From contig CAZCLW010000001.1 in the NCBI GenBank assembly GCA_964499685.1, positions 28,278 to 92,277 on the forward strand: a stretch of 64,000 bases of DNA. The letters are read 5' to 3'. The position numbers were made by a program, and so were the translations under genes. The DNA is from an uncultured Planctomycetales bacterium. Its GTDB lineage: Bacteria > Omnitrophota > Gorgyraeia > Zapsychrales > GWA2-47-8. How positions within the stretch are numbered: position 1 is the first letter of the stretch; each line of letters opens with the position of its first letter. The notes under the pieces were generated by a model that did not search any database, was not told where the DNA came from, and saw only the letters and a list, made by a program, of their open reading frames with translations. Positions 33,001-57,000 of the stretch are shown piece by piece.

Positions 33001-36000
33001 TACGACCCTCACCGTCGAGTACGAAGGTATCACGTATCTTTATGATGCCACCAAGCCGGAAGGTAAAGGCGCCATCCTGCGACAATCACCGATCACGCCT
33101 GATTTCGATGTCACCAAACCGTACATCGTCCGCATCGAAGACCGCTTGAGCGGCCTGGTCTGGGAAGAAGAACGGTTAAGAGAAAGAGATCAGGTCCTGG
33201 TCATGGCCAAGTTCGAAGGGCGCATGATCGACGGCCAGTTTGTCCGGGAAAATGTCACCCGCTACGTGTTTGACGGTTATAAGTCGATCGGCGTTGCCCA
33301 ATCTTCCAGCACCTTCATCATCAACGGCGGAAGCGAAGAAACTGTTCCGTTCAAGACATCCGTCACGACCGACATCAGAGACCATAGGGTTTATATTGAT
33401 CTCACCAACAATATCACCGGTGTCAAATGGGCCGAGGTCAGAGACGGTTATGGCCGCGTGATCGAAAAGGTCGAAGGCCAGTTCGTGACCAGACTGACGT
33501 ATGAAGGTATTTCCGGCACCATCAATGTGGCCAGCGCCTCCAAGACCTATCTGGTCAACGCCGACGGCACCGAAGTCCTGATCGATGAGAGCCGTCTGTT
33601 GACCGCTAAGGGCCATGAGATCACGGCCGCGACCACGGCCGCGGAGTTGTTCAACGACATCAAGAAGCTCCGCTACCAGGGTATCCGTTACCATGACGGT
33701 CAGCAGATCGTTTACCAGGAGATCCGCGACGCCAAGGGTAATGTCCTCGAGACACACTTCGGCTTTATCAACCAGCTCGGCCAATTCATCGCGACCTTCA
33801 AGATCTACAGCTTCTATGAGACGGGTGTGGATGAGGACGGTAACTTGAGGGGTGGCATTTATGACATACCGACAAAGACAGTGTTGACTGTTGTCAGAGG
33901 AGACAGGGAAGAAGTTGATTCTTATTCCAATAATACCAGGGTCGAAAGCGGCATTATCCACTATAAATCCAAGAGAGGCTTTGCTACGGTCGAATTTAAC
34001 AATGCCCTGAACAATGAACAGAATAGAAATGACCGCTATGCCTTCTTAAGAGCTGAAATTATGGGTGATGGCATTCCGTTCCGCTATGTGGCCGAATCCC
34101 GTGAAGAAAGAAGAAACGGCAAAGGTCAACTGATCATCACTTTGAACGGTTCCCGTGAATTCGATCAAGTGGGCTTCCCGGCTCAGGATAGTGCTAAATT
34201 CATCACATTCTTGAGCTATCCGGAATCAGGAGATAACCGCTTGTCCCATGAAAGCCGTACTTATGAGTATGTGAAGGGCCATGAAAATATTGAATTCTAC
34301 CAAGATCGTGAACCGATTGTTGTCAGCGATAACTTCAGGATCCTGACCGCTCAAGATGTCAACGGTCAACCGGTCAACGTCATCGTCTATGACACGGAAG
34401 ATACCCGTAGAGCCAAGCAAAGCATTACCGGACGCGCCTTCCGCTTGGATGACGGCCGTCTGTTCGCCGAATATCATACCGGCAAATTGGTCAAGGATGC
34501 TGAATTGGTCGTCTTCTTCAATGAAAACGGATATCCTGTCGCGACAAAAGAACTGGATGTTTCTATCGCAGAAATTCTAAGCCAAGGCAGATCGGAGATC
34601 TTTAACAGAGGATTGACAGACAGCAGTATCCGCCAGGATTACCGGAGACATTACATCGCGCTCCTTAGAGATCGTAACGGTGAATATTTTGTCTTTGATG
34701 AAGATGTAAGAGAAGGTACGCGCTTCGACAGGCTTACCCAGAACGACTTCGTTCAGGGCGAAGAGATCACATCGGCCAGATTCAATGCCCACCGCGCCGG
34801 ACAGCCGGCCGTGCAGATGGACTTCTTTACTTTCGAAGAAGCCGTTGGCTTGGCTGAAAGAGAAGGCACATTCTACAATCAAGACGTCGCCATCTATAAA
34901 ATAAAGAACAGATTTATTCCGGTCGAATGGCAGGATTACAAAGCCGAAGGCTTCCTCGAATCTCTGGTCGAATACTACACTGTCCAGCTGGAAGAGGACA
35001 AACATTATCAGAATAACCTCATCTCCAATGCCAAAGAACTGATCGGTAGAGGCCTGTTGGCTCCGACCATAGTTGTTATCGTTTCTGCCTTCGCTATCTT
35101 TACGATCACTATACCGCTTCTGCTCTTGGCGGTAACTGCCCTGATCTCGCGTGTGTTCATGAGAAAAGTGGGCGGCCGCAGGACCGATACACGCTCAACG
35201 GTCGTTGCCGGTTCCCGCCGCCGCACCGACATTGCGAGAGGCGAGTTTAAAGCGCCGAACCCGATCGATCCGAAGATTTACTTCCGCTTAGGTGTTATCT
35301 TGGGCGGCTTCTCCACGATCGGTCAATTTACCGAATACCTTAACAAACTCTATATCGAAGGCGGTTTCTTAGAGACAGATCCAGCCGTTAAACAAGCTAA
35401 AGAACAAGCCTTGATCGCCCGCTTCTATCCGGGAGTTGTCGAACCTGTCCGCGACGAAGCCACTGTCTGGGCTGGCTATAAAGATCAATTCGGCATTGAA
35501 TTGACCAATATCGAGAAATTGGTCATTGAACCGGTGGCGATATTCTTCTTAATGGCTATCGCCCAGGATTCACGCCGTTTGGACAGCATGACCGGAAGTA
35601 AATTCGCCGAATTCAAGTCATTTAAAGAATTCTATGCTAAATATAAACTCTTCGTCAGCGACCGGGATTTCAGACGCTACTTAGAATATACGATCGAAGA
35701 AGACAAGGTTGATCCATTTACCGGAGAGGCATTGATTGCCGCGGGGCGGACAAATGGTTCTTTGGATTTCCGTGGCCTATTGATCAGATCGATTGAGAAG
35801 AAATTAACGGCTGCCGATCGCGATAATTTAGTGCTTAATCCGATCCGTGAATATTTAATGAAGAAATATGAAGAGCATAAGCTCCAGGGATCTGTGTTGC
35901 CGAAATGGATATCGAGCTTGTTCAGAAAGATCGGCTTAGGCAAGCTCATTGATCTTATTAGCGAAAGACGTTACGCTTTCCCGCAACCGTTCGCTCCGAA

Positions 36001-39000
36001 ATCGATCAGCCGCAAGATCCTGGTGGTATCCGTCGTGATCGGAGCGGTCGGTTTATTGACCTATATCAAGCTGACCTTCGCCATGTCGCTGATCCCGTTT
36101 GTCGGTTTGGCATTGACCGTTGCCTTGCTGGGCTGGCAGATCATCGAAATGGTCTCAATGGCGAGATTCTTTACGCTGTATAAAATCGGCGGTTTGATCG
36201 ATATCTGGAGATCTTCAAGACATTATAAGGGTATTGAGACAGAGCAGATCAAATTGGCCAAATCGTTCTGGAGACGCCTGTTTGCCGCATGGGTTGGTAC
36301 CAGCGCCTTATTGGCGGTTGTTTCCTTCTACTATGCGGCGGGTGCAATGCCGTTCTGGATCCTGACCATATTCGGCGGCATCACTTTTGCCTTCAATACA
36401 GTCGTCGCGCTGCGTACATGGTGGGCATTCTTTATCGAGGCTGTCGCCAAATCCCTGGAAGACAATGGGCGATGGGGTGCGATCATCCACTATGAACGCA
36501 TTCCGCAGGAATTGATTTCTATGGTGAACCGCGATACTTATCTTAAGGATGTCTTTGCCGAGATCATTGTCAACGAAACCTTACTGAAATACTTCCTGGC
36601 TACACCGCAGGAAGCCGAAGCCCTTCTGCAGGCGGTAGCTGCGGGGGAACCGTTACCGGCTTTGACCAATAGGCGCGCCAAAGAAGTCATCGTTCAATTC
36701 TTCAATAACTTGACCCATTACAGTCCTCAGGAATTGGATGAGATCAAGAGATTCATCCGTGCCAATCCGGGCGAATACCTAAAACTCTTTACTAAGATTA
36801 CGACCAACAACCAGTTGGGCGTGGTCACCCGCCAGAGCGTGGATGATGAGAAGAAGGCGGACATCAAGACACCGTTTAGGATCATGAAAGAAGCCTTTGC
36901 CGGCGACTGGAAGGTTTATTTGATGCACATCACGGAAGGCATCGCCGAACCGGTGAGATCTCAATTGATTGCCAAATATAGTAATCCGAGAGTGACCTTC
37001 GAGGAAACCCTTAAAGGCCTGCTTGGTGGAGGCATTAATCCGGAAGGGTATGATCCGGCCTTCGATAAAGAAGCCACTACCGCCGTTTTAACCGCCATCT
37101 TAAAGCTTATGCCTTTGCAAGATTTGGTTAAATTAGCCGATAAGAATGGAATCAAGACGATTACAGTTGATGGCGCTTCCACTGAAATTAAAGCCAAGAT
37201 CGGTGAAATTAAGGCCATGAAGGGTGCCCCGATCAAGATCAGCAAGGCTTATTGGGCACTTGAACAACAGATTCGCGATCTCATTGTCGGTCATGTAGCT
37301 TCTGATATGGTAACGGTCGAAAAAGCCCGTAATATTCTCAGAGAAGAAATGTTGGCTATGCAGATCATGAACCAATGGATCATCTTCCGCGCCGACAATG
37401 CTTTAAAGACCATTCAAACATCCACACAGTCTTCTTTGGCGGCCTATAAGATATTTTTAAGGCATGTTTTGGATCGTGAACCGACTGAAGGCGACATCCG
37501 TGAATACCACCGTGGATTAGTGAATTATAACATTGTCAATCCTAATGCCGGTTCCAATAACTGGAGTGTGGTCATGGAACAACTCCGGATATTTGGTTGG
37601 GAAAAGATCGGCTGGATCAACGGTGAACCGACCGAGCCTTTATTAGGGATTGCCACCAATGAAGCCAGCGAGGCTGCCGGCATGGGTGTTTCTAATTGGG
37701 GTTATAAGATCGATAACTGGACGCATGCGGTTCGCGTTCTCAGGGAACAAGACGGTGTCATCTTCAACACAGACTGGGAACACACCATCCTGCCGGTTGA
37801 TGTCTGGTTATTGCCGTTCGTGGCTTATGAATATACTTTGCGCAAAGATTTAGGCGTTACCACGACCCACTTGCGCGATGCGGACCGCGGCATGACCCCG
37901 ATCGCCAAGAACCAGGAAGTTGCCGAAGATGTCTGGAATACCCGCGTCATGCCGGCTGAAACCCGTATCGGTGCCGTGGCCCTCTACGGTCCGGGTATTG
38001 TCCGCTTGCCGATCATGCGCAGCTTCGGCGCTCCGGTCAGCAAGATCGAAGACTCTGCGACCGCTCAGGAAGCCTTAAAGCAGGGATACAAAGTCGACTA
38101 TGCGCCGGGCATCACCATGACCCGCGGCCGTGAAAAGACCCAGGGCGGCATGCCGGCCTTCGTCAACCGTTTCGGCGGTTTGACCGTTGATAATACGCTG
38201 ACACCTCATTACCGTCAACTTATGAAGAGCGATCGCGTCCATTGGACGGCCAAGATGGCCCTTATGATGAACGATGATCATTACATTAACCAAGTCTTTA
38301 TTCCGCGTTATAACTTGATCATCTTCCTGTTCGCGTTCTTCGTTTCCTTTACACCGTTCGCGTATTTGGCCTTCCCGGCGTTCTTCATCGGACTGCAGAA
38401 CATCTTTGCTCAGGCCATTACCGCCGGCGGTGTCCGCAAATTCATCAAGGATTATGGATTCCTGGCCGGTTATGGCAGATATTTGACCAAATTCTGGTCT
38501 TTGGTCTTCACCTTCTTGTCTTTGGCACCGAACGATGCTTACAAGACAACTTATGCCTTAAGCGGTGAATCGGGCATATTCGCGGGTGGCGAAAAAGATG
38601 TGAAGCATTCTTCCGAAAGCTTCAAGAGCCTGTACGGGAAATATCGTGAATCCATTAAGTGGGGCGTTATCTTGCTCGCCATCGTTGTGTTTGCGCCATT
38701 CCATCCTGTGGGTGTGGCCGCTCAGTTGTTCTTCTATGTGTTGCCGTTCGCCTTCATCTTCGGGCCGTTCTTGGCAAACGGTTTAGGTATTGTTGATTCC
38801 TTCAAGAGATCGCGCAAACAATACCGTGATAAGAAGGAAGGCAAGAAAAAGGCAGAGGGAGAAAACAAAAAGAAGAAAACAGAGCCGAGTATCTCAGAAA
38901 AAATCAAAGAACAGCGTCGTAGATATGTTGCGGGTGTCGCGGCAAACTTGTCTAAAGAGGAATTAGGCAAGATTAGAGCTGAATTGAAAGAATCAGGAGA

Positions 39001-42000
39001 AAAATTGGATAAAGCCTGGGAGTCCGGCAGCTTCTTTACTAATAGAGAAGATTTAATATCCGGAAATTATAAGGATGAAAAAGCTAAGAAAGAGCTGGAA
39101 GAATCATTAAGAAAGAATTTGGGAGTTTTTGTCCGCGCATGGCTCGAATTCTTACCGTTGTCTCTTATTAACTTACTTAATAAACGAGTCTTCTTGAATA
39201 CATCTGGCTTGAAGACTTTCATTAATGGTGTCTTTGCTATTCCGTTCTTCTTGTTTGATATCTTTATGGTCACACCGATAGAGAAGATAGCTATCGCATT
39301 GTTTGGTAAAAGATATGTGACAAAAATTAATGGTATTGCCGCTCAAGGACCGACCGTAGCTCAGACTCCGCGGAGCGGAAACAACACAAGAAATGGCTTC
39401 ATTCTCACACCGATGTTAGGCGTGCTGGCGACTGGATTTACAGGAATTGTGGCCTTAACTGCAATCGGAAAAGTAACGATTGCGGTAGGAGTTATCGTAG
39501 TGATTGGAATCGTTATGGCAATTGTTTCCAGTATTTTAGACAGAATGCATCCTGAACGAGTTATTCTGCGGAAACAAAGAGCATTAGAACAAGAGGCAGA
39601 GAGGAAACTCAGCAAAGAGGTGAAAGCAAAAATATTATCTAAAATTGAAGCTAAGACAAGTGAAAAAGGTTACAAAATTTCAAGAGCTCACGTTTCTAAA
39701 GCCATTGACTTATTCAAAAGAGATGGTGATTTCAAGGTTGCGGTGAATATTGAATATGAAGAAATTAGGAATCCTCAATATTATGAAGAGTTCAGTGGCC
39801 CATTTGAGCCAGAAACAATTTCTCAATTAAAGCAAATTTCTATAAGCATAGAACCTATTGAACCTGACAAATCCGACACCACCCGCCGTTTACCGGGTGA
39901 GAAGATGATGAACGAAAGAGTCATTAAAGCCCAGATCACCAAGAACGGCGGTATCAATGCTTATACGGCCCTGACGACCGAGAGCGAAGAAGCTAAATTG
40001 GCCCGCGAAGTTGTCCGCAGGATCTTCGGCGAACAAGCGCCTGTCCAGTTAGAAGCGATGATCGCAGCCGGCTTATTAAGGGCCGGTCCGCTGGCCGGTG
40101 CGATCGCTGCCAATGTCACCATTAATAGAAAACGTACCATCATTCTCGGTACGACATATCCTGCCTATAACAATCTGACCCAGCGCGTTATCAGCATTGT
40201 TCATGAATTCGGCGCTTTGCGTGGCTTGTCCGATGCTGAAAACGAAGCCAAAGAAGTCGAAGCCCGCAAGATCTTAAGCGAGATCAGTGAAAAAGATTTC
40301 ATCGCCATCAATGATCTGACCAAGACCTTCGAAATGCTCAAACATAAAGAAGAAGTCACGGTCGGCTTCGTGAAGGGCAACAAAGTCGAACACGAAGTCA
40401 AAATGGCTGTTCCGGCCGCCCGCGGCAACGAAATCAAAGATGTCGCTGAATATATCGCCGTCCGCATCGCCGGTACCTTGTCCAAGATCGGCGCCGAAGG
40501 CATTATCATCCATACCAAGAGCGATGAATTATTCGCGGCTGTTGAACAGTTATTCAAAGGTAAATACGGCCGCGTTCCGAGCTACTTCAGCACGATCTAC
40601 GAAACCAAATTCAGAACTGTCCGCGCTGCTTCCACGAAAGAAACCAGAGCCGCTAAAGTTGCCGAAACCAAAGCCGCCGAAGCCATCGATTACAGCAAAG
40701 GCCGCGTGGTCGGTATCGACGTGGGTGCGAGCGACGTGAAAGTCATCAGCTTCGTCAACGGTAAAGTCGTCTACGGTAAAGAAATCAACTGGAAATCGGT
40801 CGAGTTCCGCCGCTCCGAAATGCATTTAAGATATTACGTCCTGATGGCCCAGATCGCCGAAGTCGCTATCTGGCTGTACGAAGATCGCGATGCCAAGTTC
40901 GATGCCTTAAGAGAAGAATTGAAACACTTAGGACATGATGCCAACAGCCCGCTCGACAAAATCGAAGCTTTCATCAATAAAGTTAAAGAATCCGGTATCC
41001 AGAGAAGCACGCTAGATGCGATCGGTTTAAGCACGGCCGGCGCGGTCGTCAATGGCCGTATCGTCCAGGAAGGCGCCCGCGTCTATCAGGGTATCGAAGC
41101 CGAAGAATTCTGGACCAAGGTCGCTCCGATGGCCCGCCGCATTTCCGAATCCATGAACGGTGTTGTGGTCGGCTTATTGAACGACGGTGACGCCGGTGCC
41201 GTCTCCGTCGCCGGAACGTTAGGATTAAAGAAGACGTTAGCCCTGAGCTTGGGTACCGGTTTGGCCGGTGGTTATGTTGACGGCAACGGTCTGGTCACCG
41301 AAAATCTCGGAGAAATCGGTAAAGTCAGTATCGATGTTTCCGCTCACAGCGGCAAGAAAGGTTATGTCCATGAAGGTCTCATGATCCCGGGTGCGTTACA
41401 GCAATATACTTCACAACGCGGTGTCCTGCGTCTGGCCCGCCAAGTCTGGCCGAACATGGACCGTGAATTCGAAGAAAAGAAGGCCCGCGAATTCGTCGTC
41501 AAATACAGTGTTCAGTTGGTCGAAGGTGAAGACGTGGTCGCCCAAGTCATGGCCGGTTTAACCGGTGATAAGCTCGAAGAATTCAAGAAAGCTATCGGCG
41601 ACAGGCCGAAACTGAAATATGTTCAGAGCAAATTGGCTTCGACGAATGCGGTTGAACAAGAACAGGCCCGCTGGATCTTCAGAAAGATCGGCGAATACCT
41701 GGCCGTCGCTGTGGATGTCACGGCCGAAGATCTCGATATCGAAACCGTCGTTCTCTTTGGTGCCGTTACCGCCGGTGAAGCCGGAAGATTACTCGTCGAA
41801 AGCACCCAGTCCAAATTAAACGAAGCTGGATTAAGCATCCAGGTGAAGCTGGCTTCTGAAGAAGATTACGCCGCTAAATTCGGTCAGGAAATCAGCGATG
41901 AATTCGGCAAACAATTCGCTTCCAGATTCGGTCAGGCGGTCGGTGCCGTCTATATGGGCTTACAGGAAAAGGTCAGCCCGAAGACAGGCGAACCGATCAG

Positions 42001-45000
42001 CGATGAAGAAGTCGCCCGCCGCTTCGCCGGTACACCGGAATACGGTATTCATCTCCAGCGCGTGAGACTCGAGCGCGGTTTGGCCGATGCCCGCAACTAT
42101 CATGATGTGGTTGTCTTATTGGTGAAGGGCGACAGCTTGAAGTACGCGGCCGAAGCGATCGAAAACGCCAAGGGCCGTATCATTCCGGAAGCCAGTAACG
42201 TCATCCAGATTCCGGTCACGATGAGCGTGGAAGAAGCCGCTGCTCAGATCCGCGCCATGATGGAAAAACGTCGCACAAGCGGTGAGGTCGCCGTCATCCT
42301 CGATGTTGTTGAAGAAGATATCAGTGGAAACTTATCCGCCGTATTAAGAACCGCCCGTAAACTGGTTGCCGGCGGCGTCAATCTCAATACGGATCGCATC
42401 GCCATGATTCTCGCCGGTGGCGATGGAAAGCGTAACTATCCGATTACTTTGGCCGAAGGTTATGGTAATAAAGGCTTGGTCAGCTCCTTAAACGGCGAAC
42501 CGAACATCTATCAGGCTATCAAACAGAGCTTACAGATCATCGGTGAAGGTAACGTCGGCATGGTCAGCTTGTCCACCGACCGCATCTTCGGTATTACCCA
42601 GCCGTTAGCCAACTTAGGCAAACAGGGTATTCAGTTGTTAGGCAGCGAAATCGCAAAAGATCATCCGGAATGGGATTATTACGGTAAAGTCGAAGCTGAC
42701 GCGGAAGGCCGCTTGGTTGCTCTCCACAAGAGAAAATCCGAACCCGAAGCCGCCTACTTAGGCCGCGATCTAAGCAGAAAATACTTCCCAGCCAACAATT
42801 TGACTATCTACTATTTCAATGCTCACGTCATCAACGAATTCATCAAAGAGGGCGGCATTGAAAATGGTCCGGATATCGCCCGCAAAGATCAGGATCTCAA
42901 CCAGGTCTTAGGTAAAGGTCTCGCGACTCTTCAGGCCGCCGGCATCGATCTCGGCTTCGTCTCCACCGGTGCCGATACCTATATCACCGATCTCGGCACC
43001 AATGACCGCTACTATGTCGGTTATCAAGCCTTGTTCACAGATGCCATTTTAAGACAGCTCGTCGGCTATTCCTTCATGGAGCCGAAGGTGATCGTCAGCG
43101 CCGATGTCCGCTTGGGCAAGGCTGTCAAGATTGAGAATGGCGCCATCATCTTAGGCAAAGGTTCGATCGAAGCTGGACTCATTGAGAAGGGTGCGGTGGT
43201 GATCAATACAACGGCTAAAGAGGTCGAAGCCAAAAACGGTAGCTTGATCGTGGGCGGTTTTGCTCCGGAAGGAAAGATCATCGGCATCGGCGGAGAAGTT
43301 TTGAGCGATGTTGCTATCAATGCGGAGGGCAAGAAAGTCAACGTCCGCGTCACGATCGATGTTAACGCCGATCCGAAAGAAAAATGGAACGAAAAGCAAT
43401 TCGGCGGATACAGCTACAGCGATCTAAAGAAATATCTCGATTACGAAGAGATGCACAGGCGTCATAGCGGTGTTGAGCTCTTGGGCTACGGCACCGGCCC
43501 CGTCCAAAAGGTCGGTTACGATGAAGTAAGAGCCGGTTACGCCGACAAGTACCAGGTCGAAGCCGACTTAAGAAGAGGCGAATTCTACGCTCATGGCACG
43601 GCCTCCAAAGAATTAGCCGAGATGTTGAAGAATGCCTACGGCCGCCTGCGCGAGCTGGTCAAGGCCGATAGCAGCCTGGAAGCCTACTTCAACGAGATCA
43701 TCAACCGCAAGGATAACGCAGTCAGCACGACCATCCATGTCTCAAGTAAACTCCCGATCGACTCGGTAAGACGCTTCTCCTATCAGAGAGAGTGGCTGAT
43801 GATCATCTTCAACCAGGCCTTCATCGAGTTCCTCTTAAAGCACTATAAGGATCCGTCCAATAAAGAAGCCGTTGAGTACCTCCTGGCCGAGAGACTCTTC
43901 CATGAGTTGGGCCACACCAATAACGTCACCTATGTCAGAGGCGCCATCCGCGAAGAGTTGGGCCTGATCAAAAGAGACGTTCAATTGATCCGCGTGGAGG
44001 CCCAGACCGAAGCCGCCGCCAAGATCGCCGCCTTTAAGGCCCTGGTCGCCTCAGCGGGTCAAGAAGACCTGGCCGCTGAGACCTTCTACCGCGGTAAACT
44101 CGAAGAATTCGGCCGCATGACCGACAAGGCCCAGGAAGAGGCCATCCGCAATTATCTGATGGAATACCATATCGACGGTGAGTATGAGATCGCCGGCCAC
44201 AGGGAATGGATCGTCTTAAGGAACAAAAAGGCCCTAGAATCTATCGCCAAGGCGGTCAAGAAAGACCTTAAGGCCATGCTCGCCCAGGTTGCCAAGGAAA
44301 CCGGCAAAACAGAAACCGAGATATTAGCCGGTACTTTAGCCAGCAAAGAGGTCATGGCAATGACCGCTTCCAGAGTCGATGAAGAAAGAAAAAGATATTT
44401 CCAAGAGCACAATATCAAGAAGGTGGTCGTTGTCATAGGCGGTAACGGTTCCCTCTCGGTCAACGCCCCGGCCCTGCAGAACCAGGAAGATACCGCTATC
44501 GTCCTGGTCCAGGCCATCACCGATAACGGCGGAAGAACAGGTGAACAGGAGATCGAATTAAGGCCGGGCAAAGGACGCACCATCGGCTTAGGCGACCAGG
44601 CGGCCGCCGTTGCCAGCGGCTTGCTGACGGATGCCTTCTTGAACAGAAAGATGTACTCGAACTTCAGCGCGGATAAAGACGATGCCGAGACACCCGGTAC
44701 CCTGGAAGGTGTTGTCATCTATGCCATCAAGAGCAAGTTCCCTGAAATGATCGAAAAAGAATTCGGCATCATCGAATTCATCGTCGAACAGCTCAACATG
44801 GCCAGGATCATCGATGGGGAGTTCGGCGGATTCGACTACAGCGACAAGGCCAAGGCCTATGAGAAGAAGTTCCGCTTCCAAGGAAAGAGCATCCGTAACT
44901 TGCATATGCTGGCCCTCTGGCATGAGATGGGCGCCTTCCGGGACCTCAGGGACGGCGGCGGGGTCGACGAAGAAAGGGCCAAAGTGGCCATGTACATGAT

Positions 45001-48000
45001 GGAACGCGCCTGGGGCGTTGAAGGCCGCTTCCATGTCGTCCCGGTCGCCCTGGAACCGGCGACCTTAAAGGCCGTGTATGCTCAGCCTATCGCCGAGAAG
45101 ATGCTGGGTAAATTACGTAAATTAGACACCGATGCCATGCTCAACTTCGACACCAAGTATGTCGTCCGTAACGAGCAAGGCGAGATCATCGGCGTCTACG
45201 GCCAGAAGTTCATGGATCAGCTCAAAGGCAACAAGCTTGTTGAGTATAGGCTGGTCAAGAGCGAAGAAGATGAGAACGCTCAGCTCCCGTCCATGAACCC
45301 TGAGGTCGGGGAATGGCTCCAGAGAGCCGATGCCATCATCTTCGGACCTGGCAGCCTGTATTCGAGCATCCTCTCGCAGCTGACCGTTCCGGGCCTGGCG
45401 GTGGCGGTAAGGAATGCCAAGGCTGCCCGCAAGATCTGGTTCTTCAACCATGTCAACATGGAAGAGACCAGCAACTACACCTTCATGGATTATGTCAACG
45501 CGATCGAACGTGTCTTGAGCACCCGGGAAGTTGCCATGGCCGGCAATATGATCCAGGTCATTAGAGTAAGCCGCGATCACGGCACAGCCCGCTATATTGA
45601 AGATGCCGACCATGTTTATAAGGATGAACAGGGCAACAACTATGTCAAGATAGGCGACCTGGTCAATACCGTCTTGAGCAACAATCCGTACGGGGCAGCC
45701 GTGGATGCTTACATTCAGCAGCATGGATTGAACCAATACGGTGAACCGCAAGAAACAGCTTACACCAACGGTAGCCCGCTGCTCGATGAACAAAAGAGAC
45801 TTAAATTCGTCGGCCGAGATGGCACCATCTATGCCGGCATGGAAGATAATAACGTCCTTCAGCGCTCTAAAGTCGAAGTCCCAGCTGAAAAGGGCGTCTA
45901 TGAGTTCTATCCGATCTTGGTTGCGGAGGATGGAAGGATTATCCGCGTCTCCAAAGACGATCTCGTCCAGGTCGAGATCCGTCCCGGCGTCTATGGCTAC
46001 ATGAGCCCGTATGTGTATGTCAACAGACATGTCTATGCGGTCCTGAAGAACCCGGCATTGATGAGAGAGTTAGGTATCGACCTGACCAGTGACGAAGGCC
46101 TCAAGGTCCTCTGGCTCTTAAGCTGGTCCGAACAAGACGGCAAGCTCTATCACAGCCGTTCGGAAGCCGGCAAATGGGAAAAACTGGTCTACGCCGCCGA
46201 TAGTGACGTTACCGAATTAGAGACCAGAGGCATCAAGAAAGACAATGTCTTAAGAGAGCGTATCGTCAACGTCGCCCGCAAGGACTTGAAGGCCGCCGTG
46301 GGTGAAGCGGTCATCGAGACCATGGGCGGTACGGACGCCACCTCCGTGGGCAAGGTGTTCGAGGCGATGGACCTGTTGGGGAGAGATATAACCCGCCGCT
46401 TACCTGGTGAAAAAATGCTCAGTGAAAAATCCGTTAAGACCCAGATTGCTGAAAACGGCGGTATTCAGGCTTATGCGAGTATTGCCGCAAACAGCCAAGA
46501 AGCCAGATTAGCCGCGGCCATTATTAAGAAAATGCTGGGAGAAAGAGCCGCATCTCAATTAAAGAATATCGTGGATGGCGGAATGTTAAGGGCCGGTCCG
46601 TTAACGGGTGCCGTTGCTGCAAATATAATCATTGATGGAAAACGCATTATCATCCTCAGCACCACATATCCCGCCTATAACAATCTCATTGAAAGAATCA
46701 TCAGTATAGTTCACGAAATCGGCGCTATCCAAGGCTTAAGCGATGCCGCTAACGGAGAGCTTGAGGCTAAAGTTCTTATTTTATTAGAGAAGTTTACGGA
46801 AGCTATTGAAGATATTTTCCGGCTCACGGCTGCCTTTGAACGCAAAACCCTCCGGACCCGAGAGAGCATCATTGACTTCTTGATCGGCTGGTTGGAAAGC
46901 GGTGAGAATTTTGCTTATGAGAAATTGGACATCATCAAGATCCGTAAAGGCAAAGAGATCGTTGCAGGAAGCTTAAATGCCCGCTTAGCTCACGACTTAG
47001 GATTCCGTCACAGATCAGCCAATGCCTTTGTGGTCGCGCCGGATGGCAAAGTGGTCTTCCAAAGACGTGCTCATCATAAACGGGCAGCGCCTTGGCAGAT
47101 ATCCATCTACGGCGGCCATGTCAAGGCCGGTCATTCTTATGAGCATACGATCCTTCATGAAGAGTTACCTGAAGAGTTGGAAATCACCAAGCAATTGAAA
47201 GGACGTTTAGTGCGCGTCGGCAAGGAAGGCGCTTTCCGGTGGGATTCAAAGGGTAATAGAGATGTCAGCACCTTATACGTTTATTTCTTAACAGAAGAAG
47301 AGTATGAGGCTATTCGCGAACATGCCTTCCAGCTGGAAGAAATGAAATCAAGGATGACCGAAGATGAATTCAAGGCATGGCTCGAACAGCAGGCCAAACA
47401 GCATCCCGGCCATTACGAAGTCTATAAGATCATTTTCGAAAATATCGAACGTCTGGCCGGACGCCGTTCCTTCCTCGTTACCGAGAGCTACAACGATAAG
47501 ACTGTGACTGAAGATGTGGCGTTCACTAAAGACGTCATGTCGACCTTGATGAATGATGCGGCATTAATGGAGGAAATCAAGGGTATCATCGATCAAGAAT
47601 TAGGCGAAGTCGACATGCTCGGCTACGGCACCGGCCCCGTCCAAAAGGTCGGTTACGATGAAGTAAGAGCCGGTTACGCCGACAAGTACCAGGTCGAAGC
47701 CGACTTAAGAAGAGGCGAATTCTACGCTCATGGCACGGCCTCCAAAGAATTAGCCGAGATGTTGAAGAATGCCTACGGCCGCCTGCGCGAGCTGGTCAAG
47801 GCCGATAGCAGCCTGGAAGCCTACTTCAACGAGATCATCAACCGCAAGGATAACGCAGTCAGCACGACCATCCATGTCTCAAGTAAACTCCCGATCGACT
47901 CGGTAAGACGCTTCTCCTATCAGAGAGAGTGGCTGATGATCATCTTCAACCAGGCCTTCATCGAGTTCCTCTTAAAGCACTATAAGGATCCGTCCAATAA

Positions 48001-51000
48001 AGAAGCCGTTGAGTACCTCCTGGCCGAGAGACTCTTCCATGAGTTGGGCCACACCAATAACGTCACCTATGTCAGAGGCGCCATCCGCGAAGAGTTGGGC
48101 CTGATCAAAAGAGACGTTCAATTGATCCGCGTGGAGGCCCAGACCGAAGCCGCCGCCAAGATCGCCGCCTTTAAGGCCCTGGTCGCCTCAGCGGGTCAAG
48201 AAGACCTGGCCGCTGAGACCTTCTACCGCGGTAAACTCGAAGAATTCGGCCGCATGACCGACAAGGCCCAGGAAGAGGCCATCCGCAATTATCTGATGGA
48301 ATACCATATCGACGGTGAGTATGAGATCGCCGGCCACAGGGAATGGATCGTCTTAAGGAACAAAAAGGCCCTAGAATCTATCGCCAAGGCGGTCAAGAAA
48401 GACCTTAAGGCCATGCTCGCCCAGGTTGCCAAGGAAACCGGCAAAACAGAAACCGAGATATTAGCCGGTACTTTAGCCAGCAAAGAGGTCATGGCAATGA
48501 CCGCTTCCAGAGTCGATGAAGAAAGAAAAAGATATTTCCAAGAGCACAATATCAAGAAGGTGGTCGTTGTCATAGGCGGTAACGGTTCCCTCTCGGTCAA
48601 CGCCCCGGCCCTGCAGAACCAGGAAGATACCGCTATCGTCCTGGTCCAGGCCATCACCGATAACGGCGGAAGAACAGGTGAACAGGAGATCGAATTAAGG
48701 CCGGGCAAAGGACGCACCATCGGCTTAGGCGACCAGGCGGCCGCCGTTGCCAGCGGCTTGCTGACGGATGCCTTCTTGAACAGAAAGATGTACTCGAACT
48801 TCAGCGCGGATAAAGACGATGCCGAGACACCCGGTACCCTGGAAGGTGTTGTCATCTATGCCATCAAGAGCAAGTTCCCTGAAATGATCGAAAAAGAATT
48901 CGGCATCATCGAATTCATCGTCGAACAGCTCAACATGGCCAGGATCATCGATGGGGAGTTCGGCGGATTCGACTACAGCGACAAGGCCAAGGCCTATGAG
49001 AAGAAGTTCCGCTTCCAAGGAAAGAGCATCCGTAACTTGCATATGCTGGCCCTCTGGCATGAGATGGGCGCCTTCCGGGACCTCAGGGACGGCGGCGGGG
49101 TCGACGAAGAAAGGGCCAAAGTGGCCATGTACATGATGGAACGCGCCTGGGGCGTTGAAGGCCGCTTCCATGTCGTCCCGGTCGCCCTGGAACCGGCGAC
49201 CTTAAAGGCCGTGTATGCTCAGCCTATCGCCGAGAAGATGCTGGGTAAATTACGTAAATTAGACACCGATGCCATGCTCAACTTCGACACCAAGTATGTC
49301 GTCCGTAACGAGCAAGGCGAGATCATCGGCGTCTACGGCCAGAAGTTCATGGATCAGCTCAAAGGCAACAAGCTTGTTGAGTATAGGCTGGTCAAGAGCG
49401 AAGAAGATGAGAACGCTCAGCTCCCGTCCATGAACCCTGAGGTCGGGGAATGGCTCCAGAGAGCCGATGCCATCATCTTCGGACCTGGCAGCCTGTATTC
49501 GAGCATCCTCTCGCAGCTGACCGTTCCGGGCCTGGCGGTGGCGGTAAGGAATGCCAAGGCTGCCCGCAAGATCTGGTTCTTCAACCATGTCAACATGGAA
49601 GAGACCAGCAACTACACCTTCATGGATTATGTCAACGCGATCGAACGTGTCTTGAGCACCCGGGAAGTTGCCATGGCCGGCAATATGATCCAGGTCATTA
49701 GAGTAAGCCGCGATCACGGCACAGCCCGCTATATTGAAGATGCCGACCATGTTTATAAGGATGAACAGGGCAACAACTATGTCAAGATAGGCGACCTGGT
49801 CAATACCGTCTTGAGCAACAATCCGTACGGGGCAGCCGTGGATGCTTACATTCAGCAGCATGGATTGAACCAATACGGTGAACCGCAAGAAACAGCTTAC
49901 ACCAACGGTAGCCCGCTGCTCGATGAACAAAAGAGACTTAAATTCGTCGGCCGAGATGGCACCATCTATGCCGGCATGGAAGATAATAACGTCCTTCAGC
50001 GCTCTAAAGTCGAAGTCCCAGCTGAAAAGGGCGTCTATGAGTTCTATCCGATCTTGGTTGCGGAGGATGGAAGGATTATCCGCGTCTCCAAAGACGATCT
50101 CGTCCAGGTCGAGATCCGTCCCGGCGTCTATGGCTACATGAGCCCGTATGTGTATGTCAACAGACATGTCTATGCGGTCCTGAAGAACCCGGCATTGATG
50201 AGAGAGTTAGGTATCGACCTGACCAGTGACGAAGGCCTCAAGGTCCTCTGGCTCTTAAGCTGGTCCGAACAAGACGGCAAGCTCTATCACAGCCGTTCGG
50301 AAGCCGGCAAATGGGAAAAACTGGTCTACGCCGCCGATAGTGACGTTACCGAATTAGAGACCAGAGGCATCAAGAAAGACAATGTCTTAAGAGAGCGTAT
50401 CGTCAACGTCGCCCGCAAGGACTTGAAGGCCGCCGTGGGTGAAGCGGTCATCGAGACCATGGGCGGTACGGACGCCACCTCCGTGGGCAAGGTGTTCGAG
50501 GCGATGGACCTGTTGGGGAAAAAGCCGGTCCAGCCGGCCAAACAGATCTTAGATCAAGAATTTGTCTCCATTACCGATACACAAAAAGCCTATGAAGCTT
50601 TAGAACGTAAAGAAGAAGTAAGAGTCGGATATTTGCGGGGCGGAAAAGTTTATCATGAAGTGGTCATGACCGTTCCGGTAGCCAGAGCTGAAGAAGAGAT
50701 TGCAACGGTTGCTGAGTATGTGACTTTAAGGATTGCCGGAACATTATCCAGGGTCGGCGCTGAAGGCATCGTTATCTATACTCCGGCCAAGAAGGTCTAT
50801 CAGCAGATTGAAGCGTTATTGACCCAGAAATATGGCCGTGTCCCGAGCTATTTCAGCGGTATTTATGAGACCAGATTCGGAATAAAGAGAGCCAAAAGAT
50901 CGTGGGAAACAAAAGTCAAAGCCTCAGCCGCCGAAGCCATCGCTAAAGAAATTAAATATGATCAAGGTCGTGTGGTCGGCATCGATGTGGGGGCCAGCGA

Positions 51001-54000
51001 CGTTAAAGTCATCAGTTTTGTGGATGGAAAGGTTGTCTATGCTAAGGAAGTCAATTGGTATTCCGTCAGCTTCAGAAGCTCAGATATCCATTTAAGATAT
51101 TATGTGACCATGGCAAGATTGGCGCAGATCGCTATTTCGATCAAAGAAAGCACCAGTTTGGATGTACGCGGGTTTGAGGAAGAATTAAAAGAGTTAGCGC
51201 ATGATGCCAACAGCCCGCTCGATAAGATCGAAGATTTCATCAGGAGAGTTGAAGAAACCGGAATAAGGGTTATTCAATTAGATGCTGTCGGCCTGAGCAC
51301 CGCCGGTGCGGTCGTCGAAGGTCGTATCGTCCAGGAAGGTGCTCGCGTCTATCAAGGCGTTGAAGCCGAAGAATTCTGGACCAAGGTCGCTCCGATGGCC
51401 CGCCGGATTTCTGAGGCCTTGGACGGGGTCGTGGTTGGCGTGTTGAATGACGGCGATGCCGGGGCTATTTCGGTTGCCGGAACGCTCGGATTAAAGAAAA
51501 CATTGGCCTTAAGTTTAGGAACAGGTCTGGCCGGCGGATACGTTGATGAACAAGGCATGGTCACCAATAACTTAGGTGAAGTCGGTAAGGTTTCGATCGA
51601 CATTTCAGCCCGCTCAGGCCAGGAAGGATTTATCCACGAAGGCTTGAGATTGCCGGGTGCCCTCCAGCAATATACCTCACAGCGCGGTGTCTTGAGATTA
51701 GCCGACCAGGCCTGGCCGGGATTAGACAGAGAATTCAAGGAAAAGGTCGCCAAAGAATTTGCCGCTAAGCATAGCATCGACTTAAAGGATGTCCAAGACA
51801 TCATTAAGGCAGTCGGAGAAAAATTAAGCGGCACAGCCAAAGAAGAATATGAAAAAGCCATCGGGGCCCGACCGAAACTCAAATACATCCAGAAGAAGCT
51901 GACTTCGGATAACGAAGAAGAACGGAAAACAGCCGAAGCCATCTTCCGTACGATCGGATATTATTTGGCGGTCGTCGTTGAATCAAGTATTGAAGATCTC
52001 AAGATCGAAAATGTTGTCCTCTTCGGCGCGGTCACCAGCGGTAAGGCCGGTGAATTGATCGTTTCATCCACCATGGAAAACCTGAAGAATAAGGGCATTG
52101 CGGGGGTCAAAGTGCTGTTGGCTTCCGAAGAAAATTATGCCGCTAAGTTCGGAATAGAGATCAGCAAGGAATTCGGCTATCAATTTGCTGCACGCTTTGG
52201 ACAAGCCGTCGGGGCTGTTTATATGGGGTTACAAAGAAAAGTCAATCCTGAGATCGCCAAGGCTGAGCCTATCAGCGATGCAGAAGTCAAAAGAAGATTC
52301 GAAGGAACGGCTGAATATGGCATCCATCTACAACGCGTGAGATTAGAGCGCGGTTTAGCCGATCCAAGAAAGTATCATGATGCGGTTGTCCTGTTAGTAA
52401 AAGGCGATAGCTTAACGTATACGAAAGATGCTCTTGAACTGGCCAAGGGCAAGGTCATTCCGTCAGCCAGTAACATTATCGAGATACCGGCAACCATGAG
52501 CCTGGAAGAAGCGGGCCGCAAGATCGCCGAAGTCATGCAGAGAAGAAGAGATCACGGCGAAACAGCCATTATTCTGGATGTGGTTGAGGAAGATATCGAA
52601 GGTAACTTATCTGCCGTTCTCCGCACCTTTAGAAAGCTCGTCTTAGGCGGCATCAAATTCAAACAAGAACGCGTGCTGATGGTCCTCGCCGGCGGCGATG
52701 GAAAGAGAAATTATCCGATCACGCCTGCCGAAGGGTTCGGGAATAAGGGTCTGGTCAGCTCATTGAACGGCGAGCCGAATATTTATCAGGCGATCAGGCA
52801 GGGCTTGCAGATCTTCGGAGAAGGCAATACCGGTTTAGTCAGCTTGTCCACCGACCGCATCTTCGGCATTACCAAAGCCCTGACCGATTTAGGCAAGCAG
52901 GGCGTTCAATTATTAGGCAGCGAGATCCGTAAAGACCATCCGGAATGGGATTATTACGGTAAGGTCGAGGCCGATTTGGAAGGCCGTCTGGTGGCTTTGC
53001 ACAAGAGAAATTCTCCTGCTGAAGCTGAATACTTAAATCGTGATGCGGGCCGTAAATATTATCCAGCTAACAACTTAACGATTTATTATTTCGGCGATGA
53101 AATGATCAGAAGGTTCATCATGGAGGGCGGAATTGAACATGGGCCTGATATCGCCAGAAAAGACCAGGACCTCAATCAGGTCCTCGGTAAGAACGCACAG
53201 CTGTTGCAGGGTGCAGGTGTCGAGGTCGGATTTGTTTCAACCGGTGAAGATACTTATATAACCGATTTGGGCAGCAACGACAGATATTATGTCGGATATC
53301 AATCATTGTTTACAGATGCCATCTTAAGACAGTTGGTCGGGTACTCATTCATGAAGCCGAAGAAAATTGTGGGTAAGGACATGAAATTAGCTAAGGGAGT
53401 AAAAGTTGAAGACGGTGCCGTTGTTTTGGGTCGCGGTGAAATTAAGGAAGGTATCATTGAAGCTGGCGCCGTTGTCGTGAACACAACAGCTCAAAGAATT
53501 GTTGCCAGGAAAGGAACCCTGGTGATGGCTGGATACGATCCGCAAGGTGAAATAACGGGTGAAGCCGGTCAAGTCTTGAGCGATGTGGCTCTGAATGTTG
53601 AAGGCCAAAAGGTCAATGTCCGCGTAACGGCGCCAATCGAGGCTGATCCGAAAGCGACCTGGAAAGATAAGCAGTTCAGCGGATACAGCTACGCGGATCT
53701 GAAGAAATATTTGGATTATGAGGAAGTGAAAAGAAGGCTTCAAGGTGCTGACTCCACCCAACCCTTCACCGAGATCCCGGTGGCCTTAAGCGGTGAAGAT
53801 GAAGTTTCCGCCGTTGTGAAGGCTGTTCTGAAGAACGATCAAGCGATCCTCGAAGTGACGGAAGGCGCCCTCCAGCCCGGACAGGAAGAGCTATTGAAGG
53901 AAACGCTGACCAAATTATCCATGCTGGTCCGCGGGCCGCCGGTTATCTTGACCATCCGCTTGACCACCCGCCGCACTGATCTTACGATCGGTTCTTCCGC

Positions 54001-57000
54001 TTACATTGCGACCGCCAACCTCACCACCCAGGAAGTCAACGTTCATCCGCAGTACTTCACGTTGGAACCTGTTAAACAATTCGAAATTCTTTACCACGAG
54101 ATCGTCAGCCATATCGTCAATAAAGAGGCCGATGAAACGGCAGCCATGGCCGATACGAAGCGCCTTATGGTTCTTTATGAGATCTTCGACGGTAAGATCG
54201 TGGCTTTAAGCCAGTACATCGAAAGGGCCATTAAGGCCAAGAATTCTTCACTCTCAGCTGTTGTCCGGGGCGCCTTCCATGAAGCCGATAAATTGCAGAC
54301 CCGCGAAACGGCCAAAGCCCATACCGCCAAAGAACAAAAAGACCAGGTGCTTTCCTTCGGCGGCGGCAGCGGCATGCTGGTCATCCTGAAGGCCTTAAAA
54401 CAATTGACCGATCATGACTTAAATATCTTCGCGGTCCAAAGCTCGATCGACGACGGCGGCTCCACCTACAAGCTGGTCACTTCCCTGATGGAGGCCGGTT
54501 TCGGAAAGATCGTTTCCATCGGCGACCTGGTCAACGCTCTGTTCAAAGGGTTTGGTTCGACCGACAAACTCTATAAGCTTCTGGATGATCAAGGCCGTGT
54601 CAGCTTGACCACCAAGGCTGATTTAAAGAAAGATATGCCGGCTTTGGATAAAGAAGGCCGTGTATTCAAGGAAGGCAAGATCATCTTCTTTGATGAAGAC
54701 GGCGGCGTTGTTTACGTGGATTCCCTTAAGGAATTGGTCATCCGCCTCTTAAAGCGTAATGTGGAATATACAGTCGGGAACGGTGCGGGCATCGGTTATC
54801 TGGAACGGGAAAAGACCTCCACCTTAAGCCATGATTTTGTCTATTTTGCCGCCAGCCTCCTGAACCTGATCGATATTGTCGAACCGTATTTCACCCGCAA
54901 TATCATCCCGCTCAAAGGGGCCAGCATCCGCAATCTTCTGTTCGTGGCCGTCTTAGAATACCTCGGCTTGATCAACATCGACGCGCCGAAATATACGCCC
55001 GGCTCCCAGGCTTCCACTTTAAGCGACGAGAATATGAAGGAGATGGAAGCCGGCCTGGGCCTACTGGGCTCCATGGCCGGTATCTCCAAAGGACATGTTT
55101 TATTGTCACATAACCACCCGGCCACGGTTTATGCCGTGTATGAGGGCTATGTCATCCTGATCGAAGAACCGGAAAGCGACACTGAAGACAATAAACATTT
55201 TATCGTGGTCAATCTCAATAAAGAAATGCGCGAGGCGGTGGTTAAGGTCTACCGTGTCGCCCAGGAAAACGGACATGCAAAATTGATCAGCACTTCCCAT
55301 CCGGTGAATTATGCCGCCGCCAACAAAGTGGTCACCATCAGGATCGCGAACGGAAGGATATTGATCCGGATGATGGTCGATCATTTTGGGACCTTTAAGT
55401 TCGATGCGGTCCGCAGGGCCGACAAGACAGATGCGTTTGATTATATTGAGATCCATGAAGAAGCGGATCATATGGAAGAAAACTTCGTGGTCTATCAGGG
55501 CGGCGAACACCGCCTGTCCCAGGACGGCACGGGTATGGTCCGCTTCACTGCCGAGCAAGCCGGCGCTTACGAATACCGTCCGCTCAACGCGAACGGATTG
55601 AATATCTATGTCCGCAACCGTCTGGTCGCCATGCAGACCAATATCACCGAAACGGCCAATTATTCCAAGATCGTTGATTTCGGTATCGCCCAGGAAGCCG
55701 GCGAAGAACTGGTCAAAGAGGCCAAGGGCGTTTCCAAGCGCACGGTTTATGCGCCGAGCCCGAACAAACGCCTGAAGGCCAATGACGCCGTCATCGAAAG
55801 AATATTATCGCCCAAGACCAAAGCGATCACCTTCGGTCCCGGCTCACCGTTTACCAGTACACTGATCCATCTTTTGGTCAGCGATGTCCCCGAAGCCCTG
55901 GCCAAACGCAAGGCCAAAGGCGATATCCGCATTGTCTTTTTGGCCAATCCGACCGTGGACAATGAAAGCGCCGGTTACAGCCTGGAAGGCATGATGGACT
56001 TTATCGAGCAGAAGACCGGTTACCGCTTTGACGATCTCTTCACCGACGTCAATCTGACCGAGTTCGATACGACCAAATTAGAGAACTATCAGCAGATCAG
56101 TGAGGCCAACCGGCCGATGGATGCCTCCTGGTACGTCGATGAGGTTCTGAATAATTTTGAGATCCTGAATCAACTTGGCCTGGTTTATCTCCGCCTGCTT
56201 TATCGCGAAGAAAAAGAGATGGAAGAAGAGGTACGGCGCCAATACATGATCAAGGATGTCGCCGCGCTCCTGAAAGCCCTGTATCAAATCCCCACAGCTG
56301 AGATCAGGACCGATCCGGGCCAGAGCTCCAAAGAGGCCAAGAAATCCCGCGGCCCGCTGGTTGTGGACGCGTTCGAGCTTTCTCGCATCAAGCAAAAATA
56401 TACCGAGCTGCGCATTCACCGCGGGTATTTCGTTGTGGGTATGGAATACAGAGCGCCGCGCGAACCCGGCCGCGGGTTGACCGCCGGCATCGGCTTCCTT
56501 CCGGATTATACACAGTACGCGTTGGGCGACATTTTAGGTATCCGCTATTTCGACCGCGAGATCGCCGAGGCCTACATGAAAGTTTCTTCCGGCCTTAATG
56601 CAGGCGATATTGATACCTTCGAATTTATTTTCCTCCGCCCGGCCTTGAAGACCCGTATTATCGAGCAGCTCAGTCCCGAAGCCAGGGTCTATTTCGGTCA
56701 ATTATCTTTGAACCAGTTCAAGCGCCGCGTTCGGGAAGTCCTGGTAAGAGATAACCTGCGCAAAGACCGCCGCGGAGGTTTGGGTATTGCCCTGACGGCC
56801 CAATTGAGATATGCGGACCATGAAGAGCAGGGAGAATTGAATGACCTTTTGACCCGGCTGACCGGGCGCATACGCTTGATCAGCGATAACCGCGCGGTAT
56901 TGGAATACGGGGAAGCTCCTGCGGACTTTTTGCGCGTGACCATTTCCTCCATTGTGCGCACGATCTTCTTCGATCCTAAACAGCCAGCCACATTCAATGC

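Follow-up and report, generated by a model that had tools for sequence, protein, structure and literature searches.

An exactly repeated 2.9-kb module among long-diverged paralogues of a giant multi-enzyme gene: a candidate case of recent intragenic gene conversion

Concerted evolution by gene conversion is known from duplicated bacterial tuf genes, rRNA operons, and the repeat domains of Gram-positive surface proteins. Giant genes of the Omnitrophota have been described as 'Archaeovorins' in a 2023 paper in which 'elongation by duplication' was left to later work (West-Roberts et al., bioRxiv 10.1101/2023.11.21.568195), and giants of the 'multi-enzyme metabolic cluster' type in a 2026 survey, according to which repeated Pfam domains inside one polypeptide are the rule (bioRxiv 10.64898/2026.06.07.730766). 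The survey considered this repeat architecture to be old rather than the result of a recent expansion; only identical copies placed back to back were counted in its strict scan. How the giant genes of Omnitrophota grow and change is an open question. Here, we report the analysis of a 64,000-nt stretch of contig CAZCLW010000001.1 (assembly GCA_964499685.1, positions 28,278 to 92,277 of the forward strand), designated the window, which lies within a single giant open reading frame (ORF) and contains two identical in-frame copies of a 966-codon module, module B, among diverged paralogous modules. We propose, with moderate confidence, that the two copies became identical through recent gene conversion between pre-existing module sites and that neither is a newly added module.

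The region reads as three cassette-like units, X-A1-B1, X'-U-B2, and A2 followed by a third CofD-like domain (Table 1). Module A combines a ROK-type kinase with a nucleotidyltransferase, module B an N-terminal HExxH domain (B_N) with a C-terminal CofD-like domain (B_C), and U is Nudix-like. Chunked protein self-comparison recovered the order X-A1-B1-X'-B2-A2 that had been proposed in a first-pass annotation made from the sequence alone. That earlier map was refined by the delineation of X as a discrete module of about 125 amino acids, and corrected at A2, which follows B2 immediately, beginning with the start of A and lacking an X module. In a whole-window profile scan, B_N was found at two sites and the Nudix domain in one copy. 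A B-like remnant located after A2, hinted at by a BLAST extension to position 53812, was rejected since the B_N profile gave no match there.

One frame of the plus strand (codons starting at positions 3a-1) is stop-free over positions 2-64000, corresponding to 21,333 codons, and is open at both ends of the window; none of the other frames stays open for as many as 400 codons. Within this frame, positions 43484-46382 (B1) and 47621-50519 (B2) are identical over 2899 nt, with 0 mismatches, and the very next base differs on both sides. The offset between the copies, 4137 nt, is equal to 1379 codons. Both the absence of mismatches and the preservation of the frame, which had been claimed in the first-pass annotation, were thus verified. 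After this pair, the longest exact direct repeats of the window measure 44, 29, and 26 nt and are all shared by A1 and A2; a 2899-nt repeat cannot be attributed to chance. No tandem array was detected in the region by TRF. For B1 and B2, overall divergence has a 95% upper bound of 0.10% per site, and synonymous divergence (dS) one of about 0.005, i.e. about 0.5% at approximately 632 synonymous sites.

The exact block starts at position 6 of the B_N profile and ends 17 amino acids past the end of the B_C profile. The identical tract thus covers the homologous block in full, up to its non-homologous neighbours. At the left edge, GVELL/GYGTGP in the first copy corresponds to EVDML/GYGTGP in the second (the slash marking the start of the tract) and to SLLL/GYGTGP in P0001, the closest relative of B. 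The four to five residues located just outside the tract (VELL and VDML) are similar at the protein level, with 5 identical bases out of 12. No homology was found beyond the right edge.

Module B was searched for features of mobile elements. It contains no transposase, endonuclease, or intein domain, its flanks show no terminal or target-site duplication, and the window contains no inverted 25-mers. Identification of B as a mobile element, an intein, or an insertion sequence was rejected, since it consists of HExxH and CofD-like domains found in a context that is kept among relatives. Two antisense ORFs inside B (302 and 188 amino acids) belong to no family, and no Rfam match was obtained between 39 and 55 kb.

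The paralogues flanking B are far more diverged. A1 and A2 align over 1067 codons (positions 40223-43534 versus 50462-53812) with 67.5% amino acid identity, in agreement with the 60-70% estimated at first, and 67.2% nucleotide identity. The proportion of synonymous differences (pS) is 0.68, dS is about 1.7, which is effectively saturated, and the ratio of nonsynonymous to synonymous divergence (dN/dS) is 0.155. X and X' align (positions 39875-40480 versus 46385-46999) with 55-57% amino acid and 63% nucleotide identity; the values for 150 codons are 0.675 for pS, about 1.7 for dS, and 0.20 for dN/dS. These pairs are old and both copies have been held under purifying selection. The event that made B1 and B2 identical is at least a few hundred-fold younger than the duplications of A and X. 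The coexistence of a very recent event with ancient duplications, broadly as previously claimed, is apparent from the dS values, at most about 0.005 for B and about 1.7 for A1/A2 and X/X'. Protein self-comparison in chunks also revealed additional internal pairs at positions 5024-5830 versus 9866-10768 (39% identity) and 58736-59356 versus 61073-61717 (36% identity). Duplications of at least three very different ages are present in one ORF.

No convincing high-identity conversion patch was detected between A1 and A2. Their most similar stretch, 41057-41177 versus 51323-51443, has 86% nucleotide identity, a pS of 0.41 over 40 codons (0.68 overall), and an exact run of 44 nt at 41096/51362. It is a marginal candidate for an older, small conversion event and lies on the most conserved kinase motif.

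Comparison with the systems introduced above reveals both similarities and differences. As in pairs evolving in concert, two direct copies with zero divergence are found beside saturated paralogues, the identity is confined to the homologous block, and the G+C content at third codon positions (GC3) is perhaps raised. Unlike classical examples, the identity reaches the ends of the block, the equally long A pair was not homogenised, and the repeated unit is a 966-codon two-domain enzyme module within one ORF rather than a separate gene or a short structural repeat. In comparison to the 2026 survey, the window contains two exact copies of 2.9 kb (9% of its length), which are dispersed and consequently invisible to a back-to-back scan.

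Information on the ancestral arrangement of the modules was obtained from relatives. Close relatives are scarce: an exhaustive profile search of 1.84 billion representatives returned only 25 matches at E ≤ 1e-30. Scans for relatives of the locus detected only L001 (42% identity) among genome contigs, only L002 (27% identity, restricted to B_N) among metagenome contigs, and none among viral contigs; these three collections contained no independent copy of the locus. A query running across the end of B, X', U, and the start of B gave no match at E ≤ 1e-3. L001 is a 22.8-kb stretch of a 364-kb contig from a metagenome-assembled genome (MAG). It consists of one continuous ORF, collinear with amino acids 11420-20020 of the window, in which a single A is followed by Nudix and B and, at some distance, by the third CofD-like domain. 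No X module was detected in L001. Protein P0152 (50% identity) carries membrane segments, then X, then A, in the same order as in the window. P0045 carries X, Nudix, and B_N, in collinearity with X'-U-B2 over 620 amino acids, and P0042 carries Nudix followed by B_N. In P0001 (55-57% identity to B), A is followed by a linker of about 45 amino acids resembling the tail of the Nudix module, and then by B. P0004 contains X, B_C, and then the second half of A. The spacer between B1 and B2 had been described as a diverged copy of the 39.9-40.3 kb segment fused to a Nudix domain. The homology of X' to X supports the first part of this description, but the fusion is not accidental since the order X-U-B is kept in P0045.

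A1 and A2, which are 66-69% identical to each other, are equally distant from P0152 (53 and 54% identity, respectively), P0001 (38 and 37%), and L001 (39 and 40%). Likewise, neither X nor X' is closer than the other to the X modules of P0152, P0045, and P0004, to which X is 25-32% identical. Equidistance from these outgroups indicates that both duplications arose in the lineage of the window after its split from every relative found. Thus, the duplication of A, said to be ancient in the first-pass annotation, is old as judged from its dS of about 1.7 but specific to this lineage. The third CofD-like domain, which begins about 160 amino acids after A2 (B_C profile, E = 6e-23 and 2.5e-15; Pfam CofD, E = 6.6e-16), is also present in L001 (amino acids 5053-5361; B_C profile, E = 1.9e-19), indicating that it is older than the amplification of A and X.

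The history that we favour would start with the amplification, in the lineage of the window, of a cassette of about 7 kb with the order X-A-U-B inside an Omnitrophota giant gene. Complementary losses would have followed, unit 1 losing U to become X-A-B and unit 2 losing A to become X-U-B, whereas a third, partial unit would have supplied A2, abutting the older CofD-like domain. The copies of X and of A would then have diverged under purifying selection. Finally, one B would have recently overwritten the other by non-reciprocal homologous recombination, possibly as the latest round of a long-running concerted evolution, and this recent event would have added no module. We infer, rather than observe, the prior existence of both B sites, the nature of the recent event as a conversion and not a re-duplication, and the order in which modules were lost.

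The presence of two B sites probably dates back to the old amplification. B1 is directly followed by X', as expected for the joint left by tandem duplication of a unit extending from X to B, and this joint is as old as the divergence of X and X'. The adjacency of Nudix and B is conserved, and both observations point to two old B sites. Among relatives, the U-B_N adjacency is kept in L001, P0042, and P0045, the A-B adjacency in P0001, and the X-A adjacency in P0152. As in conversion tracts, near-identity (0 differences out of 2899 nt in B) is found beside diverged paralogues (67% nucleotide identity for A1/A2 and 63% for X/X'). Similarity outside the tract extends over only about four to five residues on the left and is absent on the right; mosaic ends are clear in L002. 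The VELL/VDML similarity looks like old, diverged homology located just outside a conversion tract.

Several considerations weigh against this history. Conversion requires high identity, and RecA-type conversion over 2.9 kb is very unlikely at 67% nucleotide identity. Module B must then never have escaped homogenisation, although the equally long A pair did. Conversion tracts normally end inside homology, whereas the tract reaches the module end on the right and comes within about four to five codons of it on the left. The antiquity of the two B sites was deduced from a few short fragments of distant relatives (27-57% identity) and from parsimony, and the exact identity could partly reflect assembly. 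Finally, no unique minimal path was found for the module history, and a four-event path with a single original B is also possible and constitutes the main rival.

The GC3 of B is 0.70, the maximum of the window (mean 0.60, standard deviation 0.054), a value that is weakly compatible with GC-biased conversion. In the single-copy B ortholog of L001, GC3 is not elevated (0.42-0.435 versus a gene mean of 0.455). However, GC3 reaches 0.69 at 29-31 kb of the window, where no repeat is present, and this observation does not favour conversion. Paralogues also differ in GC3, with values of 0.58 for X and 0.44 for X', and of 0.60 for A1 and 0.49 for A2; the B copies appear as GC3 islands relative to X', U, and A2. 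Conversion bias and a different history of units 2 and 3 are both possible explanations of the contrast between paralogues. As a clue to the direction of the donor, GC3 is weak: that of B is nearer to unit 1 than to units 2 and 3, yet above both.

The main rival is a recent dispersed duplication, in which one B would be a new copy, placed in frame at a distance of 1.2 kb from the original through replication template switching or illegitimate recombination. An X-A1-X'-U-B-A2 arrangement would, for instance, have become X-A1-B-X'-U-B-A2, and the giant gene would have acquired a module very recently. We regard this scenario as rather unlikely, but it accounts directly for an identity that is perfect up to both block ends, with an abrupt drop to non-homology on the right, as expected from a copy-and-paste event. 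Counting events on the module maps, a four-event history starting from a single, U-linked B is about equally parsimonious. In addition, the A-B joint of unit 1, without a Nudix tail, need not be inherited, since P0001 has kept such a tail. The cost of the dispersed duplication lies in its breakpoints: both must hit domain boundaries, in frame, and the left one must recreate an A-B_N joint similar to that of P0001. No target-site duplication or microhomology was found at either candidate insertion site. The VELL/VDML similarity upstream of the tract would be a coincidence, and the B1-X' joint would need a separate origin.

A related gene is informative both for conversion and for the reliability of assemblies at such loci. 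L002 (JGI Ga0268276_1000353) is a multi-enzyme gene of 3731 amino acids that shares the B_N HExxH domain with the window at 27% identity. It contains, in region 2381-5046, two in-frame paralogous kinase-like modules located 1701 nt apart. The two modules are 57.5% identical over 350 nt (2381-2731), nearly identical at 2771-3345 (570 of 575 positions, 99.1%), and then diverged again. This near-identical tract is a clear, textbook patch of gene conversion. The gene class and the presence of in-frame paralogous modules with a near-identical tract are common to L002 and the window. In contrast, the L002 tract of about 0.6 kb is flanked by diverged homology on both sides, the classical signature, whereas the 2.9-kb tract of the window fills the homologous block. 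The same gene was found in a second public assembly (L003, protein P0005; ENA MEGAHIT assembly ERZ27248937, k141_892476, positions 3811-4424), which is 99.9% identical to L002 in DNA and encodes a protein of 3164 amino acids. In L003, one hybrid copy takes the place of the two modules, with the join lying within the near-identical tract, and the protein is shorter than that of L002 by exactly one repeat unit of 567 amino acids. This difference is due either to a real deletion variant or to a short-read collapse.

The discrepancy between L002 and L003 raises the possibility, already mentioned in the first-pass annotation, that the exact repeat of the window is an assembly artefact, which would have arisen if one graph edge had been walked twice in a B-spacer-B loop, if similar copies had been collapsed or polished, or if the number of loops was wrong. 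Short reads cannot resolve exact repeats of 2.9 kb, and traversal of a loop generates a B-spacer-B structure with copies that are identical by construction. We nevertheless consider an artefact improbable. The locus has four distinct junctions (A1-B, B-X', U-B, and B-A2), all of which keep the 64-kb frame open. Homologues support U-B and A-B directly and B-A in part, through P0004, and collinearity with L001 is retained in the flanks to the left and to the right. The spacer joins only the end of B to the start of B, so that a linear molecule requires at least two copies of the ends of B, the only alternative being a circle of 4.1 kb. Furthermore, copies with 67% identity could never collapse, implying that the near-identity is real even if the exactness is not. 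What could be artefactual is either the exactness of the identity, if near-identical copies were collapsed, or how many times the loop was walked.

Ongoing tandem growth by unequal crossing-over, as claimed in the first-pass annotation, would proceed by recombination between the B copies or their neighbours when misaligned, and is very improbable. In its favour, the two repeats have the same orientation and frame and lie a short distance apart, and the L002/L003 pair shows that one unit may be gained or lost across an identical tract in this gene class, provided that the difference is real. However, unequal crossing-over duplicates a whole 4137-nt period, whereas the X'-U spacer is present once and the locus comprises only 1.70 periods with no TRF array. 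A crossover between two older B copies would generate hybrids and three copies in all instead of two identical ones, and a first identical pair cannot be made from diverged copies in this way.

Extending the favoured history of homogenisation, we tentatively suggest that the B pair may be held identical by continuing, possibly GC-biased, intragenic conversion, and that giant genes may be remodelled by cassette amplification and complementary loss of modules, with copy numbers varying within populations. The locus offers a dated series in one ORF, from internal repeats with 36-39% identity to a lineage-specific cassette amplification with 55-69% identity and one pair with 100% identity. Together with the clear conversion patch of L002, this series indicates that recombination between internal modules may still be acting. 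If so, giant genes would still be evolving, by recombination among the modules that they contain, which departs from the view of a wholly ancient repeat architecture. As indicated by the L002/L003 discrepancy, near-identical tracts are also sites at which entire modules can be added to or dropped from an assembled giant gene, so that the published lengths and domain counts of giant proteins are affected by the way in which such tracts were resolved. The gene class, repeated domains, gene conversion, and intragenic duplication were already known; the locus adds an example of a very recent event, and leaves knowledge of the mechanism of gene conversion itself unchanged.

Table 1. Features of the analysed part of the giant ORF. 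Positions are those of the window; all features are on the plus strand.
Feature	Position (nt)	Position (aa)	Strand	Basis
Giant multi-enzyme ORF, putative Omnitrophota type	2-64000		+	No stop codon; set of Pfam domains; collinearity with L001
Hydrophobic cluster	~22444-23296	7482-7765	+	Hydropathy scan
Transmembrane-like hydrophobic cluster, ending just upstream of X	35039-39550	~11680-13183	+	Hydropathy scan
X, module of ~125 amino acids, unit 1	39875-40249	13292-13416	+	Alignment with X' and with X of relatives
A1, ROK kinase and nucleotidyltransferase	40250-43483	13417-14494	+	ROK profile; Pfam
A1, N-terminal region			+
A1, ROK kinase	~40703-41971		+
A1, middle region			+
A1, nucleotidyltransferase	~42332-43100		+
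A1, left-handed beta-helix-like tail (weakly supported)			+
B1, exact copy 1	43484-46382	14495-15460	+	Exact identity; Pfam CofD
B1, B_N		~14495-14760	+
B1, HELGH motif of B_N	43901-43915		+
B1, B_C		~14761-15460	+
X' (~46383-46757) and linker, unit 2	46383-46918	15461-15639	+	Alignment with X
U, Nudix-like, single copy	46919-47620	15640-15873	+	Pfam NUDIX; orthologous to L001 amino acids 3095-3323
B2, exact copy 2	47621-50519	15874-16839	+	Identity with B1; U-B junction kept in relatives
A2, paralogue of A1	50520-53752	16840-17917	+	Alignment with A1
Third CofD-like domain, very diverged	54251-56026	~18084-18675	+	B_C profile; Pfam CofD
Hydrophobic cluster	~60245-63154	20082-21051	+	Hydropathy scan

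The domains of module A were identified by profile comparisons. A ROK profile built from six sequences matched the glucokinase 2qm1 (E = 1.1e-22) over 300 residues, i.e. its full length, and ManNAc kinase entries (4e-15 to about 1e-15). The motifs DVGASDVK, LNDGDAGA, and GTGLAGGY are present and correspond to the ROK motifs DxGxT/S, NDxxAxA, and GTGxGGG, respectively. As a single sequence, A was below the Pfam ROK thresholds. The nucleotidyltransferase was detected by Pfam NTP_transferase (25.8 bits for a cut-off of 21.2). The evidence for a left-handed beta-helix (LbH) in the tail of A consists of weak matches (E of 0.6-0.8) and a visible hexapeptide pattern, and nothing else. The ROK-like kinase of the first-pass annotation was thus established by the profile, as was the NTP-transferase by its score above cut-off, whereas the LbH rests on these weak matches. 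For U, Pfam NUDIX (PF00293) gave an E-value of 9.3e-8 (32.6 bits for a cut-off of 21.1). In the REUxEE core of the Nudix box, the arginine is not conserved, the sequence being '...ILHEELPEELEI' in the window and '...IAREIKEELLRI' in L001. The first glutamate of the box (GX5EX7REUXEEXGU) is missing in both, and U is a putative Nudix hydrolase. These data agree with the earlier description of a unique Nudix-like segment with substituted box residues. Module X, with the motif 'LRAGP...YPAYN...VHE(F/I)GA', matched no Pfam or NCBIfam family.

B_C was detected by Pfam CofD (PF01933; 74.5 bits for a cut-off of 30), by the NCBIfam CofD_related model of YvcK type (E = 3.9e-18), and by comparison with the UPF0052 structure 2hzb of the Protein Data Bank (PDB; E = 2e-14). 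Its scores are below the equivalog and subfamily cut-offs (12 versus 257 bits for F420_cofD and 66 versus 196 bits for the YvcK subfamily), and from its sequence B_C is assignable to the CofD/YvcK superfamily only. B_N, of about 260 amino acids, contains an invariant HExxH motif (ERLFHELGH). It matched no Pfam, NCBIfam, or PDB family, the only matches being a weak one to an HExxH protease-like domain (E = 0.023) and an uninformative match of 32 residues to 8vd6. B_N could be a metalloprotease-like or processing domain of polyenzyme proteins. B_N and B_C occur separately in many large proteins. An AlphaFold2 model of B, computed from an alignment of three sequences, had a pLDDT of 45 and was judged unusable.

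In the synthesis of coenzyme F420, a nucleotidyltransferase (CofC) activates the substrate and a CofD-type enzyme uses the nucleotide-linked product. The window gene and its relatives resemble CofC/CofD and the UDP-sugar-binding systems of YvcK type in that a member of the CofD/YvcK superfamily, B_C, is located beside a nucleotidyltransferase domain. B_C differs from F420 CofD and YvcK by scores far under the equivalog cut-offs, by a long C-terminal extension of about 250 amino acids, and by its fusion to an uncharacterised HExxH domain. The combination of kinase, phosphomutase, nucleotidyltransferase, Nudix, and CofD/YvcK-like domains suggests that the protein may make, use, and hydrolyse a nucleotide-activated sugar or phospho-compound.

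Along the ORF, Pfam detected PRTase-CE (two), Fic, Peptidase_M23, NTP_transferase, CofD (three), NUDIX, HAD, HATPase_c (two), PGM_PMM I-III, and PALP domains. On the basis of this domain content and of the labels of relatives, we tentatively assign the gene to the class of Omnitrophota giant genes. The length is at least 21,333 codons, with both gene ends outside the window, to be compared with the class threshold of 30,000 amino acids used by West-Roberts et al. The many transmembrane regions of giant proteins have as a counterpart three hydrophobic clusters (Table 1), located approximately by a crude Kyte-Doolittle scan (19-residue window, score above 1.8). The mixed enzyme content typical of the class is also found (NUDIX, peptidase, HAD, HATPase_c, sugar-metabolism, ROK, and PGM/PMM domains, from Pfam and PDB matches). 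No divergent SecA DEAD helicase domain was detected within the 64-kb window, beyond both ends of which the gene runs. Thus, the gene resembles Archaeovorins and multi-enzyme giants by a single ORF of more than 64 kb, transmembrane clusters, the mix of enzymes named in those papers, and relatives that are proteins of Omnitrophota MAGs; in comparison to published giants, the gene ends, and with them the full length and any SecA-like domain, fall outside the window. Relatives P0002, P0004, P0042, and P0045 carry the labels Candidatus Omnitrophica or Omnitrophota. Conflicting labels are those of L001 (CAZJFL010000001.1, 'uncultured Planctomycetales') and P0152 ('Candidatus Gastranaerophilales'), and some labels among relatives are probably those of mis-binned or mis-labelled MAG fragments.

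A stretch of about 6,900 amino acids containing the duplicated enzyme modules is located between two of the hydrophobic clusters, and its ATP- and NTP-using enzymes suggest a cytoplasmic location. The two internal pairs with 36-39% protein identity overlap the PRTase-CE and HATPase_c matches. The B_N-type HExxH domain (about 200-260 amino acids; 43484-44281 and 47621-48418 in the window) is found again in dozens of large multi-domain proteins, some of which carry it twice. These domains usually open with 'xFAP...Y(S/A)DLEGxFxD', for which the window version has 'GYGTGP'. A linker motif, '(K/P)(S/A)SSAG', is absent from the window and L001 but recurs between the domains of related multi-enzyme proteins (P0005, P0010, P0019, P0029, and others), several of which share a conserved C-terminal region of about 150 amino acids ending in '...LIAA'.

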